NCBI GenBank assembly: GCA_018674305.1 | Contig: JABHAL010000002.1 | Coordinates: forward strand, 4,496 to 68,495 | Reading direction: 5' to 3' | Source of the DNA: Candidatus Falkowbacteria bacterium | Lineage (GTDB): Bacteria > Patescibacteriota > Patescibacteriia > UBA11705 > JABHMO01 | DNA: 64,000 nt | In this document: positions 9,230-15,197 of the stretch, piece by piece | How positions within the stretch are numbered: the first letter of the stretch is position 1 | Layout: every line of letters starts with the position of its first letter | Notes under the pieces: generated by a model | Databases searched by the model: none | What the model was told of the DNA's origin: nothing | What the model saw: only the letters and a program-made list of their open reading frames with translations | Made by a program: the position numbers and the translations under genes

Positions 9230-10321
9230 TTATGTTTCAATGTAATTCAGCTTCTTAAACACTGCCACTAAAATATTCTCCAAAAATTGATCTCGGGTAT
9301 GAATATCAATGTCCTTATCTACACCTTCATCTTTTTCCATATAACGCCACATTTTCTTTTTCTTATCCCACAAATCAGTATTCTTCATCCGACACCAATC
9401 TATTTCACCCTCGTCTGGATCTTCAACTAACCCATGGGCCAAGCTTCCTAGAAGCTGCACCCTTGATACGTAGGAATCAGCCTCATCTGACAATTGATCA
9501 TTCCACATACCCTCCGCTTCTTGGTAACTGACTTTTTTCAAGTCACGATAAACCTGCTCAGCTTTTTCTTGATTACCTAAAAAATATTCAACTATAACTT
9601 GAAGTAAATAGTTTTCAGTCATTTGACTTGAATCTTCACCAAATTCACCTACTCTATTCATCCAAACTTCTGCCTCAACGTCATATAACTCGCTTTGCTG
9701 TATCTCACTATAAAAATCCTTAGCTCTTGCCATCTGTCCATCAAACACAAATGCCAGGACGCCATAAAGCTGTGAATTACAATAAAAATTTTCTGGTCCA
9801 TCAAATCTATGTTTATATAAACCATCACTCTTGCACCTAATATCAATTAAGTGCAGAAAGCTATCCGTAAAACGCTCTTGCGGCTTAATTAAATTCATAT
9901 TAATTGCAGATAAAAACTGTGTAGCTGAAGTTACCCGACTGACACCTGATTCAGATTCAACGAAATCATCCCATAATCCGGTATCGCCATAAGCCGTTGT
10001 TTTAAATAACCTACCTGTATTTTCTTTGACTTCCTCTGATGGCCCGCTTCGTAGCTTTTCTAATAATTCATTTGGCTTCATCAACGGAAAAAATTCCTTA
10101 GTTTCAATAAAATTAACGATTTGTTCTTTTTTTGTTATATAGTCCCGCATTACCTGAAGTGCCTCCTTACTTCCCGCTTCCGCCTTCGCCTTAAGCTCAG
10201 CAAAACCTAAACCGCCTGAAATCACTTCTAACTCAGACATTAATTTATCAAAATGACGTTGCTGAACTTCAGTGAAGCTAGCGTGGAGTGCTTTTTCTTG
10301 TAATTCGGATTCAATTTTCAT
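9230..10321 (-). CDS. hypothetical protein, paralog A of a three-gene family with a conserved ~75-aa N-terminal module
   Basis: N-terminus LHASFTEVQQRHFDKLMSELEVISGGLGFAELKAKAEAGSKEALQVMRDYITKKE is shared nearly identically (at DNA level too) with 10343..11074 and 11085..12197. The C-terminal part is divergent. Confidence 0.6.
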   Translation of the reverse strand: MKIESELQEKALHASFTEVQQRHFDKLMSELEVISGGLGFAELKAKAEAGSKEALQVMRDYITKKEQIVNFIETKEFFPLMKPNELLEKLRSGPSEEVKENTGRLFKTTAYGDTGLWDDFVESESGVSRVTSATQFLSAINMNLIKPQERFTDSFLHLIDIRCKSDGLYKHRFDGPENFYCNSQLYGVLAFVFDGQMARAKDFYSEIQQSELYDVEAEVWMNRVGEFGEDSSQMTENYLLQVIVEYFLGNQEKAEQVYRDLKKVSYQEAEGMWNDQLSDEADSYVSRVQLLGSLAHGLVEDPDEGEIDWCRMKNTDLWDKKKKMWRYMEKDEGVDKDIDIHTRDQFLENILVAVFKKLNYIET

Positions 10322-10342
10322 AAACCAACTTTATAATTCAAT

Positions 10343-12197: not shown

Positions 12198-12200
12198 GTT

Positions 12201-15197
12201 TTACAATTTTCGAAATTCACAAATATCTTTAAAGTCACAATGCCCACAAATGTGTTGACTGGGTTTAGGATCAAAATTTTGCTTTTTAATTTGTTCAATA
12301 TTATCCAAAAACCTTTGTTTGAGTTTTTCCTTGTCTTTAGAGTTGCCAAGAAAAGAGACTTGGCTGTCATCATCAAGAAAATAATAGGTTAATTTTTCTA
12401 ACTTTATATTCAAAACTTCTTCAGCTGCAATCTGATAGAACATTAGCTGGCGTCGGTCCTCTGTGGATAATTTTTCTTTAACTTGCCCAGTTTTGTAATC
12501 AATAATTTCAAACTGCCCTTTTTCTAATTCATCCACTCGGTCAATACGCCCAACAAAGGTGTATTCCCCAATCTTCAATCGGAACGACTGTTCCAATAAT
12601 TTAACTTTTGGTTTGTTTTTTTCAAAACCTTGGTGGAAGTTTTTTAATAAATCTTTGCCTTTTTCTAAATACTCCTCTTTTTGTTTTGCATTAACATACC
12701 AATCATCCTGCCAGTTTTCATTATAAACTTCATATAACCTTTCTAACGACAATAATCTATTTTGGTTTGCTGGTTCGCGAGACATCCCTGTCTCGCTCCC
12801 TCCTACCGCAAATATATCTTGTTGGGTATGCAGTCCAACCGTAAAACATTCTTCCAAAAATTTTTGTAAAGTATTGTGAATAGTTGAACCAAATGAAAAA
12901 TAGTGATTACCAAAGGTTGGAATTTTTAAAACATTGGCAAACTTGTACTTCAAAGGACAAGTTTCATAAGTCTGCATTTGTGAATAACTAAAATTGCGCG
13001 GTAGCTGATATTCAAAAGCCTTAGAGTCATCCTTTTGTACTCGCTCAACTGTAGGCTCAGCTTTTCCAGATTCTTCAGGTTTATTATACCCTAATTCTGT
13101 TAAAAAGCGAGACAATTTCTTTTTTCGTGCTCCACCATAGTCATCAGCTGAAGTGAAGAACAATCCCCTTTTTGCTCTGGTCATTGCTACATAAAATAAT
13201 CTCCGTTCTTCCTCTAAATGAAAATCACCTTCTGAGGAGTCTTCTTTTATCAAAGAATCTGGAATTTCAATTACCTCTTTACGCTGATCGGTCGGAAATT
13301 TTCGATCAACCAAACAAGAAACGAACACATAATCAAATTCTAAACCCTTGGCACTGTGAATTGTCATAATACGCACCATGTCCGGACCAGTTTCCACGTC
13401 AAACGCCAATTTCCCACTTTCGCCCGATTGCATTTCCATATTCAAAAGCTCCATTAAGTCACTAAGCCTCGGATCCTCATACGACATTTCCACTTCTTGA
13501 ATTTTCTTGAAAAATTGTTGAACAAAATCTAGCGTTTCTTTTGCTTTTGCTGGTTCCAAATCATTCAAATACTCCAAATAACCTGAGCCGTACAAAAAAC
13601 TTAATAAAACTTCAGTCGGTTTTTTATTTTGTGCTAACTGAGTATCTTTTTCAACTTGAACTAAAATATTGTTAATTGACTTCAAAGTTTGTTCAGTTAA
13701 GCCTGGAACTGTTGAAGCCTGCTTTAATGATTCGAATATAGATATTGATTTTCTCTTAGCTAAATGAACCAATTTAACAATTTGTTCAGGCTCAATATTT
13801 AGAAATGGCAAGTTTAGAATTCGATAAACTGCCGCGCTCTCATGATAATTATCCAGCAACTTGAAATAATTAATAATATCAACCACAACTGATTTATTGT
13901 ACAACCCTCGCATAGCCAGGAATTGGTACGGAATTTGAGCTTGTTCTAAATAATTAATAAAAATATTGGCGCTATCATTAGCCCTAACTAAAATTGCTAT
14001 ATCTGACCACTCCGCTTGCTGATCTTGTTTTAATTTTATTATTTTTTGAATTACTGCCTTTGCCTCTTCCTCAACAGACGACAAATGATAGTGAACAACC
14101 TCGCCTTTTTCAGAAACGTTAGATTTTAATTTTTTATCAATACCTAATTTTTCCTCCAATCGATATGGATTGTTTTGTAAAATAAAATTGTAGGCTAAAT
14201 CTAGAATTTCCTGTGTAGATCGATAGTTTTCTATTAATACAACTTCTTTAGCCGTTGGGTAATCTTTTTTGAACTGCATTATATTAGAAATCGAAGCTCC
14301 ACGAAACTTGTAAATGCTCTGATCATCATCTCCTACAACTGTGATATTGTTTTTGGGTGTGGCCAAAAGTTTAATTAACTCGTATTGAACAAAGTTTGTA
14401 TCCTGAAACTCGTCAACCAAAATGTGTTTGAACTGTTGACGATATTTAGCCAAAATTAATGGGCGCTTTTTAAATAATTGAATTGTATAATTTATTAAAT
14501 CAGCGAAATCCAAGCTCTCATTATCAATTAAAATTTGCTGATAAGTCTGATAGGCATTGGCAATTTCCTCAATTCGAAGAATTTCTTGTTTTAATATTTC
14601 TTTTTGATTAGCTTCGTCAACCTTACTGAAATCTATTTTGTTTACGAAATCGTGAACATCATCATTTAACTTGATTTCCTGTGCATATTTTAAATAATTT
14701 TCAGGATAAATACCTTCATCCTTGCAACGAGAGAAATGCTTTAACAGTGCGTGGATAAACTTGGTTGGATTACCTAACGGCTGATAATATTCTAATTTGA
14801 ACTTGTCCAAATTTTTCCTCACCAAGAGCCAGGCCTCCGTCCCATCCACGAGTTTGTAATTATTTGGCAAACCAATATCCAGAGCATGCCGTTTCAAAAT
14901 TTTGTCACAAAAAGCATGAAAAGTTGAAATCCACAAATCAACATAACCATATGGAAGCATTTGATCCACGCGCTCTTCCATTTCCTGCGCAGATTTTTCA
15001 GTAAAAGTTAAAGCTAATACTTCATCAACATTAGCATTTTTTTCAGTAATCAAATATGCAATTCTGGCAGTTACAACCCGAGTCTTCCCCGTACCAGCTC
15101 CAGCCACAATCAACTGAGGTCCATCTTCGTGAATAATGGCTTGCTTTTGTTGTTCATTTGATTCAGAAATTAGACTCATATGTGTATATATTAGCAC
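12201..15197 (-). CDS. UvrD/PcrA-like SF1 helicase fused to a C-terminal Cas4/AddB-like PD-(D/E)xK nuclease with an Fe-S cysteine cluster
   Basis: Walker A AGAGTGKT and UvrD motifs in the N-terminal 650 aa. C-terminus has CPLKYKF ... IIDYKTG (D-E-K) ... CGHCDFKDICEF, i.e. the four-Cys RecB-family nuclease domain. Confidence 0.8.
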   Translation of the reverse strand: MLIYTHMSLISESNEQQKQAIIHEDGPQLIVAGAGTGKTRVVTARIAYLITEKNANVDEVLALTFTEKSAQEMEERVDQMLPYGYVDLWISTFHAFCDKILKRHALDIGLPNNYKLVDGTEAWLLVRKNLDKFKLEYYQPLGNPTKFIHALLKHFSRCKDEGIYPENYLKYAQEIKLNDDVHDFVNKIDFSKVDEANQKEILKQEILRIEEIANAYQTYQQILIDNESLDFADLINYTIQLFKKRPLILAKYRQQFKHILVDEFQDTNFVQYELIKLLATPKNNITVVGDDDQSIYKFRGASISNIMQFKKDYPTAKEVVLIENYRSTQEILDLAYNFILQNNPYRLEEKLGIDKKLKSNVSEKGEVVHYHLSSVEEEAKAVIQKIIKLKQDQQAEWSDIAILVRANDSANIFINYLEQAQIPYQFLAMRGLYNKSVVVDIINYFKLLDNYHESAAVYRILNLPFLNIEPEQIVKLVHLAKRKSISIFESLKQASTVPGLTEQTLKSINNILVQVEKDTQLAQNKKPTEVLLSFLYGSGYLEYLNDLEPAKAKETLDFVQQFFKKIQEVEMSYEDPRLSDLMELLNMEMQSGESGKLAFDVETGPDMVRIMTIHSAKGLEFDYVFVSCLVDRKFPTDQRKEVIEIPDSLIKEDSSEGDFHLEEERRLFYVAMTRAKRGLFFTSADDYGGARKKKLSRFLTELGYNKPEESGKAEPTVERVQKDDSKAFEYQLPRNFSYSQMQTYETCPLKYKFANVLKIPTFGNHYFSFGSTIHNTLQKFLEECFTVGLHTQQDIFAVGGSETGMSREPANQNRLLSLERLYEVYNENWQDDWYVNAKQKEEYLEKGKDLLKNFHQGFEKNKPKVKLLEQSFRLKIGEYTFVGRIDRVDELEKGQFEIIDYKTGQVKEKLSTEDRRQLMFYQIAAEEVLNIKLEKLTYYFLDDDSQVSFLGNSKDKEKLKQRFLDNIEQIKKQNFDPKPSQHICGHCDFKDICEFRKL

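Follow-up and report, generated by a model that had tools for sequence, protein, structure and literature searches.

A multigene family with a constant N-terminal module and variable C-terminal domains in Falkowbacteria, incidentally placed beside a helicase-nuclease gene

Bacteria of the Candidate Phyla Radiation (CPR), or Patescibacteria, have tiny genomes, and their host interaction and cell organisation are largely unknown. In a stretch of 64,000 nucleotides (nt) from Candidatus Falkowbacteria bacterium (contig JABHAL010000002.1; the whole stretch is called the window below), three consecutive genes, A, B and C, start with a common module and continue into different C-terminal domains. They follow the gene of a helicase-nuclease (HelNuc), and the gaps along HelNuc-A-B-C are 3, 10 and 21 nt. 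Contigs of Falkowbacteria metagenome-assembled genomes, e.g. GCA_018670895.1 (HN858_ locus tags), are 100% identical to the window over 20 kb. A sequence-only reading of this locus had compared the constant N-terminal adaptor and its variable payload, tied to a helicase-nuclease, to an effector/immunity or defence system, and had explained the similarity of the modules by recent duplication or gene conversion. The question raised by the locus is whether A, B and C work with the helicase-nuclease or belong to something else. Our answer is that they are members of a lineage-specific multigene family, whose module would be a shared docking handle to which variable binding domains are attached; we give this reading a probability of roughly 0.55.

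The three genes are co-oriented and do share an N-terminal module, as had been claimed: over the first ~76 residues their products are pairwise 76-84% identical in amino acids (aa), and tblastn E-values of 1e-34 to 1e-39 place this similarity far above chance. At the nucleotide level the modules are 75-82% identical, with 86-95% identity at codon positions 1+2 and 50-59% at position 3. Nei-Gojobori estimates of non-synonymous (dN) and synonymous (dS) divergence are 0.07-0.14 and 1.1-3.6, that is a dN/dS of ~0.04-0.12, and 15 module copies of three loci, compared in 105 pairs, gave similar estimates. Protein conservation alone accounts for this degree of DNA similarity, and the earlier statement that the module is conserved even at the nucleotide level was an overstatement. 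Because the synonymous sites of the module are saturated, the paralogs are old and under strong purifying selection, neither recent duplicates nor recently converted copies, which disposes of the proposed recent origin.

In 18 diverse members, 25 columns of the module do not vary. Charged or polar residues occupy about half of these columns (E9, Q20, Q21, E30, E32, S35, Q56, R59, K64, K65, E66 and E73), which suggests a conserved interface beyond the fold core alone. Conservation ends sharply after the motif 'FIETK[EK]', where a flexible linker follows. In AlphaFold2 (AF2) models of B and C the module forms four amphipathic helices that match only generic bundles; in the model of C its confidence is below that of the C-terminal barrel, and in the model of B linker residues 74-87 are disordered, with a predicted local distance difference test (pLDDT) score <50. 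These models point towards an independently folded domain tethered to the C-terminus by a flexible linker.

The module has no match in Pfam, NCBIfam, PADLOC or PHROGs, and a sequence profile search of the PDB returned none below E 0.06; the complete A, B and C proteins gave only sub-threshold noise in the first four databases (e.g. TraM activator, Pan3_PK). The module profile was not found in IMG/VR viral contigs, and gave no confirmed match in genome and metagenome contig collections from which the source genomes are apparently absent. We found no description of the module family in the literature. The domain appears to be undescribed and confined to a narrow CPR clade. Two local readings of its sequence were rejected. 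A helix-hairpin-helix or other DNA-binding role for 'GGLGFAELKAKA' fails on the charge of the module, which is neutral to acidic, and on the loop, which a divergent lineage does not conserve. The string 'ELEVISGG' at residues 30-37 (10211-10234 in gene C, 12087-12110 in gene A) matches ELxxIxGG literally, probably through coincidence at a helix-loop junction. A double-glycine leader of the C39 peptidase/ABC transporter kind, including the NHLP type, was rejected because B reads 'ISDG' and conservation runs 40 residues on to 'FIETK'. Across the family position 36 is G, D, N or Q and only G37 is invariant, and the NCBIfam leader-peptide models match none of A, B and C.

Behind the module, the C-termini of A and C share 26% identity (E 2e-8) and that of B is unrelated to C, in agreement with the relationships described earlier. 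Protein A aligns over its full length with C, P0003, P0005 and P0002, which gives five A/C-class sequences. In the AF2 model of C (pLDDT 81.8) the C-terminal domain is an (alpha/alpha)6 barrel, the fold that defines the six-hairpin glycosidases (GH8, GH76 and N-acylglucosamine 2-epimerase, AGE), and the A/C C-termini are assigned to it. Enzymatic activity of these barrels is doubtful, since no Asp, His or Arg of the barrel is invariant in the five sequences and their sole invariant acidic or basic residue there is E252. A search for homologues of the C barrel lacking the module returned only C itself and its orthologue P0003. The AF2 model of B shows the same helical module followed by a beta-rich C-terminal domain with an SH3-like barrel, and some other family members carry bona fide WD40 propellers; propellers of other kinds also occur in the family. 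In their predicted folds, the C-terminal domains look like ligand-binding or enzyme scaffolds, not toxin folds. Proteins A, B and C are all acidic and have neither a signal peptide nor a transmembrane segment (maximal 19-residue Kyte-Doolittle mean at most 1.4), so the earlier remark on the absence of signal peptides stands.

The family extends far beyond this locus. With A as query, a word-indexed search gave 40 proteins; all are from Falkowbacteria or metagenome contigs and combine the common module with different C-termini. An exhaustive HMMER search of 1.84 billion (1.84e9) cluster representatives with the module profile found 53 clusters only, and in all 53 the module occupies residues 1 to ~76 of proteins of 56-479 aa. 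BLAST clustering divides the C-termini into ~28 classes, so that the design of a constant N-terminal adaptor and a variable payload, first noticed in three genes, holds across the family. In one population we counted three module copies in the window (those of A, B and C alone), four at L029, three at L030, six at L031, two more at L006, one at L032 and eight at L033. This amounts to ~25-27 copies per ~1-Mb Falkowbacteria genome, or roughly 2-3% of its genes, in a count that pools loci of several assemblies of that population.

The gene arrays (Table 1), whose contexts were taken from exact-protein look-ups, are co-oriented and lie beside varied housekeeping genes at at least six loci besides the window, none of them tied to helicase-nucleases. 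Four or five of the ~12 annotated genes that flank arrays belong to peptidoglycan synthesis, above chance expectation. Arrays in L031, L004, L006, L008, L029 and L030 abut PBP2, two Mur ligases, MurB, MurI, Alr and FtsQ, and the window triplet lies 5 kb from MreBCD-PBP2. This adjacency may point to function, or it may date from an array origin inside a dcw-type cluster. Two of the loci, L006 (11970) and L031 (6922), are 99.7% identical over 6.9 kb (Band7-PBP2-three members) and then diverge fully, 27 nt past the stop of the 352-aa member, with different member sets and flanks. This reflects either strain-level rearrangement of the array or an assembly chimera; module-mediated recombination was rejected because the breakpoint lies in intergenic DNA, outside the modules.

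Module and C-terminus have evolved differently. Between two species, orthologous members are 52-75% identical in their C-termini and 71-88% in their modules, and neighbouring housekeeping proteins are 84-97% identical. Within a lineage modules are 59-84% identical even on unrelated C-termini, and between lineages 29-35%. The latter range also applies to proteins of different lineages with the same C-terminal class by BLAST (P0070 with P0033 and P0053; P0066 with P0018; P0071 with P0037). Because modules group by lineage and C-termini by class, the two parts have different histories, the module having been homogenised or repeatedly re-used within each lineage, and the saturated dS indicates that this homogenisation is not recent. 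In the second species one member has an in-frame stop in its module ('SAL*VLRDY', L004 2861-3088) and is called as two open reading frames (ORFs; 2858-3028 and 3134-3547). This pseudogene is evidence of birth-and-death turnover in the family.

The helicase-nuclease next to the triplet is what the sequence-only reading described, a UvrD-like helicase fused to a Cas4-like Fe-S PD-(D/E)xK nuclease and separated from A by the 3-nt gap. Its Pfam domains are UvrD-helicase (1e-80), UvrD_C (5e-54) and PDDEXK_1 (2e-37), the NCBIfam cas4 model scores 63.5 bits against a cut-off of 65, and the four-Cys Fe-S motif Cys...CxxCx5C ('C...CGHCDFKDIC') was read from the translation. The protein thus has all the features of a UvrD/AddA-type helicase-nuclease: both UvrD domains, N and C, the PD-(D/E)xK domain and the Fe-S cysteines. 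Orthologues 42-73% identical to HelNuc were found in 20 species-representative CPR genomes, and that of the nearest relative (L007) is 92% identical. The six best-conserved contexts read AtpD-AtpC-(carbonic anhydrase)-CvpA-HelNuc-(signal-peptide protein)-DciA-TM146-ProRS-MreB-MreC-MreD, the signal-peptide protein (~210 aa, on the opposite strand) following HelNuc in three of the six, and more distant CPR genomes retain the pair HelNuc-TM146.

The window contains this same block, interrupted by A-B-C, which lie after HelNuc and before the signal-peptide gene. A hidden Markov model of the module finds no match, even at E up to 10, among the 933 ORFs of the 20 HelNuc loci. The triplet is absent from this site in all but the nearest relative: L007 alone has members after HelNuc, two A/C-class genes and no B. 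In CAYSUN01 a 73% identical HelNuc is followed after 10 nt by DciA (L017), and the genome has its own tandem triplet with a divergent module elsewhere (L034). Since the block is kept without members in 20 genomes, and the CAYSUN01 family lies at another locus, the helicase link is incidental. To judge from synteny, HelNuc is an unrelated, conserved housekeeping neighbour, functionally independent of the family, and the triplet arose when family members were inserted or duplicated into this conserved housekeeping block, although A-B-C are probably co-transcribed with HelNuc. The functional tie proposed earlier is consequently lost, and the paralogs, dispersed genome-wide and unlinked to helicase-nucleases, show largely what the sequence-only reading had itself named as grounds for giving it up.

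It is accordingly very improbable that A, B and C act with the helicase-nuclease as polymorphic effector/immunity or defence cassettes. The tight operon-like gaps, the fast-evolving C-termini, the two members after HelNuc in the nearest relative and the absence of an internal terminator would all suit such cassettes, though the promoter and terminator counts of the scanned locus are the same as in shuffled sequence. PADLOC does match HelNuc with its GajB and DRT helicase models. However, these matches are of the generic UvrD kind and lack partner proteins in the vicinity, PADLOC matches neither A, B and C nor the other neighbours, the HelNuc block is conserved across CPR classes without members, and the other family loci bear no relation to a helicase-nuclease. 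A Gabija-like or other helicase-based defence system was rejected because GajA or any other system-specific partner is missing and HelNuc sits in conserved housekeeping synteny. A polymorphic toxin of the LXG, WXG100 or PE type was likewise rejected, there being no such match in Pfam (E up to 1) or NCBIfam (E up to 0.1). Furthermore, the 3-21 nt gaps leave no space for immunity ORFs between A, B and C, neither toxin folds nor immunity-sized genes were found, and the searched viral contigs do not contain the module. A role in defence or as polymorphic toxins is essentially excluded.

What, then, might the module do? A domain rich in invariant polar positions, a flexible tether, fast-evolving and diverse domains of binding type, and the lineage-wise homogenisation of modules lead us to infer a docking handle. 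The module would be a common docking or assembly handle that links the variable domains with one another or with a single conserved partner, and the fast-evolving C-termini would supply differing binding specificities. Several points weigh against this. No partner of the module was found, the genes beside the arrays include no non-member that recurs from one array to the next, and a function in oligomerisation or export would suit the module just as well. The pooled member count may include strain variants, and the model of B is of moderate confidence only (pLDDT 67). The members right after HelNuc in L007 also make a local functional link in that sub-clade possible.

Among the alternatives, the one with most to recommend it, though still unlikely, is that the module serves as an unconventional signal for export or targeting, like the helical N-terminal domains of PE/PPE, WXG100 and LXG type VII substrates, and would send the variable domains to the cell surface or into the host of what is presumably an episymbiont. 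It has the same architecture of a constant helical N-terminus and a variable, fast-evolving C-terminus in a multigene family; six-hairpin glycosidase-like, SH3-like and propeller folds are typical of envelope and glycan-binding proteins; and several arrays abut PBP2, Mur ligases, MurB, MurI and Alr. The proteins, however, are acidic, soluble and without a Sec signal, they have no Pfam match to WXG100, LXG, PE or PPE at E up to 1 and no visible WxG or YxxxD/E motif, and a secretion ATPase was not seen in the window or the examined loci. We know of no report of type VII secretion in CPR bacteria. Somewhat less probable again is homo- or hetero-oligomerisation, by which members would form mixed multivalent complexes with no external partner. 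A four-helix amphipathic module with only generic bundle matches would serve for this, modules homogenised within a lineage look as if they needed mutual fit, no hub protein carries the module, and a conserved neighbour gene was not found; the charged and polar invariants, however, fit a specific hetero-interface at least as well. It is far less credible that the module targets cargo into a vault-like particle of the MVP-like protein encoded at 59470-62385. An MVP homologue is indeed present in the genome, and in L004 its gene lies ~5 kb downstream of the largest array, an arrangement that synteny suggests also beyond the window's right end. Yet at least 1781 MVP homologues occur in many phyla without the module, which is restricted to its 53 clusters, so that there is no exclusive co-occurrence, and Pfam detects no similarity to the vault-targeting INT domain. 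This possibility is without specific support.

The docking-handle reading can be taken further, tentatively and with clearly less confidence: the module might be a novel universal docking domain by which a presumably host-dependent CPR bacterium with an ultra-small genome attaches ~25 rapidly diversifying binding domains (six-hairpin barrels, propellers and SH3-like barrels) to one conserved machine. This machine might be an envelope or host-contact apparatus, a suggestion made because arrays repeatedly adjoin peptidoglycan-synthesis genes. If this were true, it would be an independently invented bacterial analogue of dockerin/cohesin or F-box/Skp1 logic, with module and partner co-evolving by lineage. 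A hyper-conserved handle joined to fast-evolving binding domains in 2-3% of the genes is very likely important for the lifestyle of the clade, and the handle offers a concrete experimental entry point, namely what it binds. A docking module could also serve as a compact orthogonal tethering tag. Meanwhile a false lead has been removed, in that A-B-C are not a helicase-linked defence system.

Table 1. Features of the HelNuc-A-B-C locus, with positions in the window, and gene order at other loci of the family (family members in square brackets, lengths in aa)
Feature or locus	Position	Strand	Description
Helicase-nuclease (HelNuc)	12201-15197	minus	998 aa from GTG; 992 aa by gene callers
Gene A	11085-12197	minus	370 aa
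Gene A, constant module	11970..12197	minus	76 aa, four predicted helices; 78% identity to B module (tblastn)
Gene A, variable C-terminal domain	11085..11969	minus	A/C class; 26% identity to C; fold inferred from C model
Gene B	10343-11074	minus	243 aa
Gene B, constant module	10847..11074	minus	AF2 helices at residues 4-13, 18-34, 40-48, 52-75
Gene B, linker and C-terminal domain	10343..10846	minus	linker = residues 74-87; beta-rich domain with predicted SH3-like barrel
Gene C	9230-10321	minus	363 aa
Gene C, constant module	10094..10321	minus	AF2 helices at residues 2-13, 18-35, 40-48, 52-74
Gene C, C-terminal domain	9230..10093	minus	predicted (alpha/alpha)6 barrel, six-hairpin glycosidase-like fold
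L031/L008			Band7-PBP2-[421, 230, 352, 268, 261]-Mur ligase-[377]
L004 (second species)			equivalent of L031/L008; eight members, one a pseudogene
L006			...[585, 469]-176-Alr-FtsQ
L029			[245, 254, 213, 217]-MurC-MurB
L030			MurI-[239, 241, 240]-RseP
L032			Map-[418, WD40]-RuvX-RecO
L033			[323]-TyrRS-147-[345, 258, 429, 231, 231, 236, 234]-ArgRS

Other features were observed in the window and in related loci. On the plus strand, 8434-9111 encodes a 225-aa protein with a signal peptide, a Cys-rich C-terminal motif and no family match, behind a perfect sigma-70 consensus promoter (8358-8386, 12/12 with TG); signal-peptide proteins of ~210 aa are found at this convergent position in L009 and L010, and in L023 the ORF is cut by masked N runs. 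Divergent from HelNuc, two zinc-ribbon proteins of 88 and 102 aa (15407-15673 and 15700-16008, plus strand) lie behind a near-consensus promoter at 15325-15353. The pair keeps its position in L007 with 42% and 68% identity, compared with 92% for HelNuc. Tandem Pro_CA_2 (beta-carbonic-anhydrase-like) paralogs follow on the minus strand at 16706-17644 and 17677-18087, and a highly acidic extension at the C-terminus of the longer one is built of repeats (DADEVEV...).

At 42308-48957 a plus-strand island, with GC and AT skew reversed, interrupts the otherwise minus-strand window. It encodes two membrane proteins and two lipoprotein-like beta-propeller/WD40 proteins of 606 and 739 aa (N-terminal signal and Cys), which have no BLAST relation to the WD40 C-termini of the family. 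A NiFe-hydrogenase large-subunit-like gene (Pfam NiFeSe_Hases 1e-31) lies at 49018-50295 on the minus strand. Four-helix-bundle proteins of the 23S-rRNA-IVP/bAvd-like type are encoded in the window (58190-58588, minus strand), L006 (4127-4504 and 16358-17929), L029 (2133-2522) and L004 (19826-20215); one copy is fused to alanine racemase, and no reverse transcriptase was seen near the copies. The MVP homologue, 971 aa long and encoded on the minus strand (Pfam MVP_shoulder 3e-28, Vault_3 3.5e-9), falls in a GC-rich patch (0.48, against ~0.35 elsewhere) and is 84% identical to the copy of the second species, and the phyla with homologues include Parcubacteria. Bacterial MVP homologues have been reported previously, in a study that does not list CPR bacteria (bioRxiv 10.1101/872010).

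Comparison with known systems places the neighbour more easily than the family. HelNuc shares the UvrD core and a C-terminal Cas4/AddB-like Fe-S nuclease with AddA/RecB-type and CPR UvrD-PD-(D/E)xK helicase-nucleases; it differs from PcrA, AddA and RecB in being a single polypeptide that scores below the equivalog cut-offs, with no AddB partner adjacent. The A/C barrels share the fold of the six-hairpin glycosidase superfamily (GH8, GH76 and the AGE family) at ~10% identity and without a Pfam match, and the catalytic residues of GH8 (Glu+Asp), GH76 (Asp-Asp) and AGE (a His pair) are not evidently kept.

As a whole, the family resembles PE/PPE and LXG/WXG100 proteins in its conserved helical N-terminus (~75-200 aa), variable C-termini, tandem arrays and fast evolution. 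It differs from them in having no sequence match, no WxG, LxG or YxxxD/E motifs, no immunity genes and no type VII machinery in sight, and in C-termini that are predicted binding-type folds and not toxins or PGRS repeats. An effector-associated adaptor with an NTPase hub was rejected, since 53 of 53 module hits are N-terminal and the Pfam-scanned members have no NTPase domain. F-box, SOCS-box and BTB receptors are similar in their small N-terminal helical adaptor, their variable WD40 and other domains and their birth-and-death evolution, but the module has no Pfam homology to the F-box. We know of no ubiquitin-like system in CPR bacteria. The closest mechanistic analogue is found in the dockerin-bearing cellulosomal enzymes, where a ~70-aa module tethers dozens of domains, encoded genome-wide, to one scaffold. 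Dockerins are usually C-terminal, Ca-binding and secreted, whereas the module described here is N-terminal, has no Ca-binding repeats, no signal peptide and no match to Pfam Dockerin_1, and no cohesin-like partner was found for it; membership among the dockerins was rejected on the signal peptide and the Pfam model. The family thus appears to fit none of the known families that were compared: its organisational principle is a known one, and the domain itself appears to be new.

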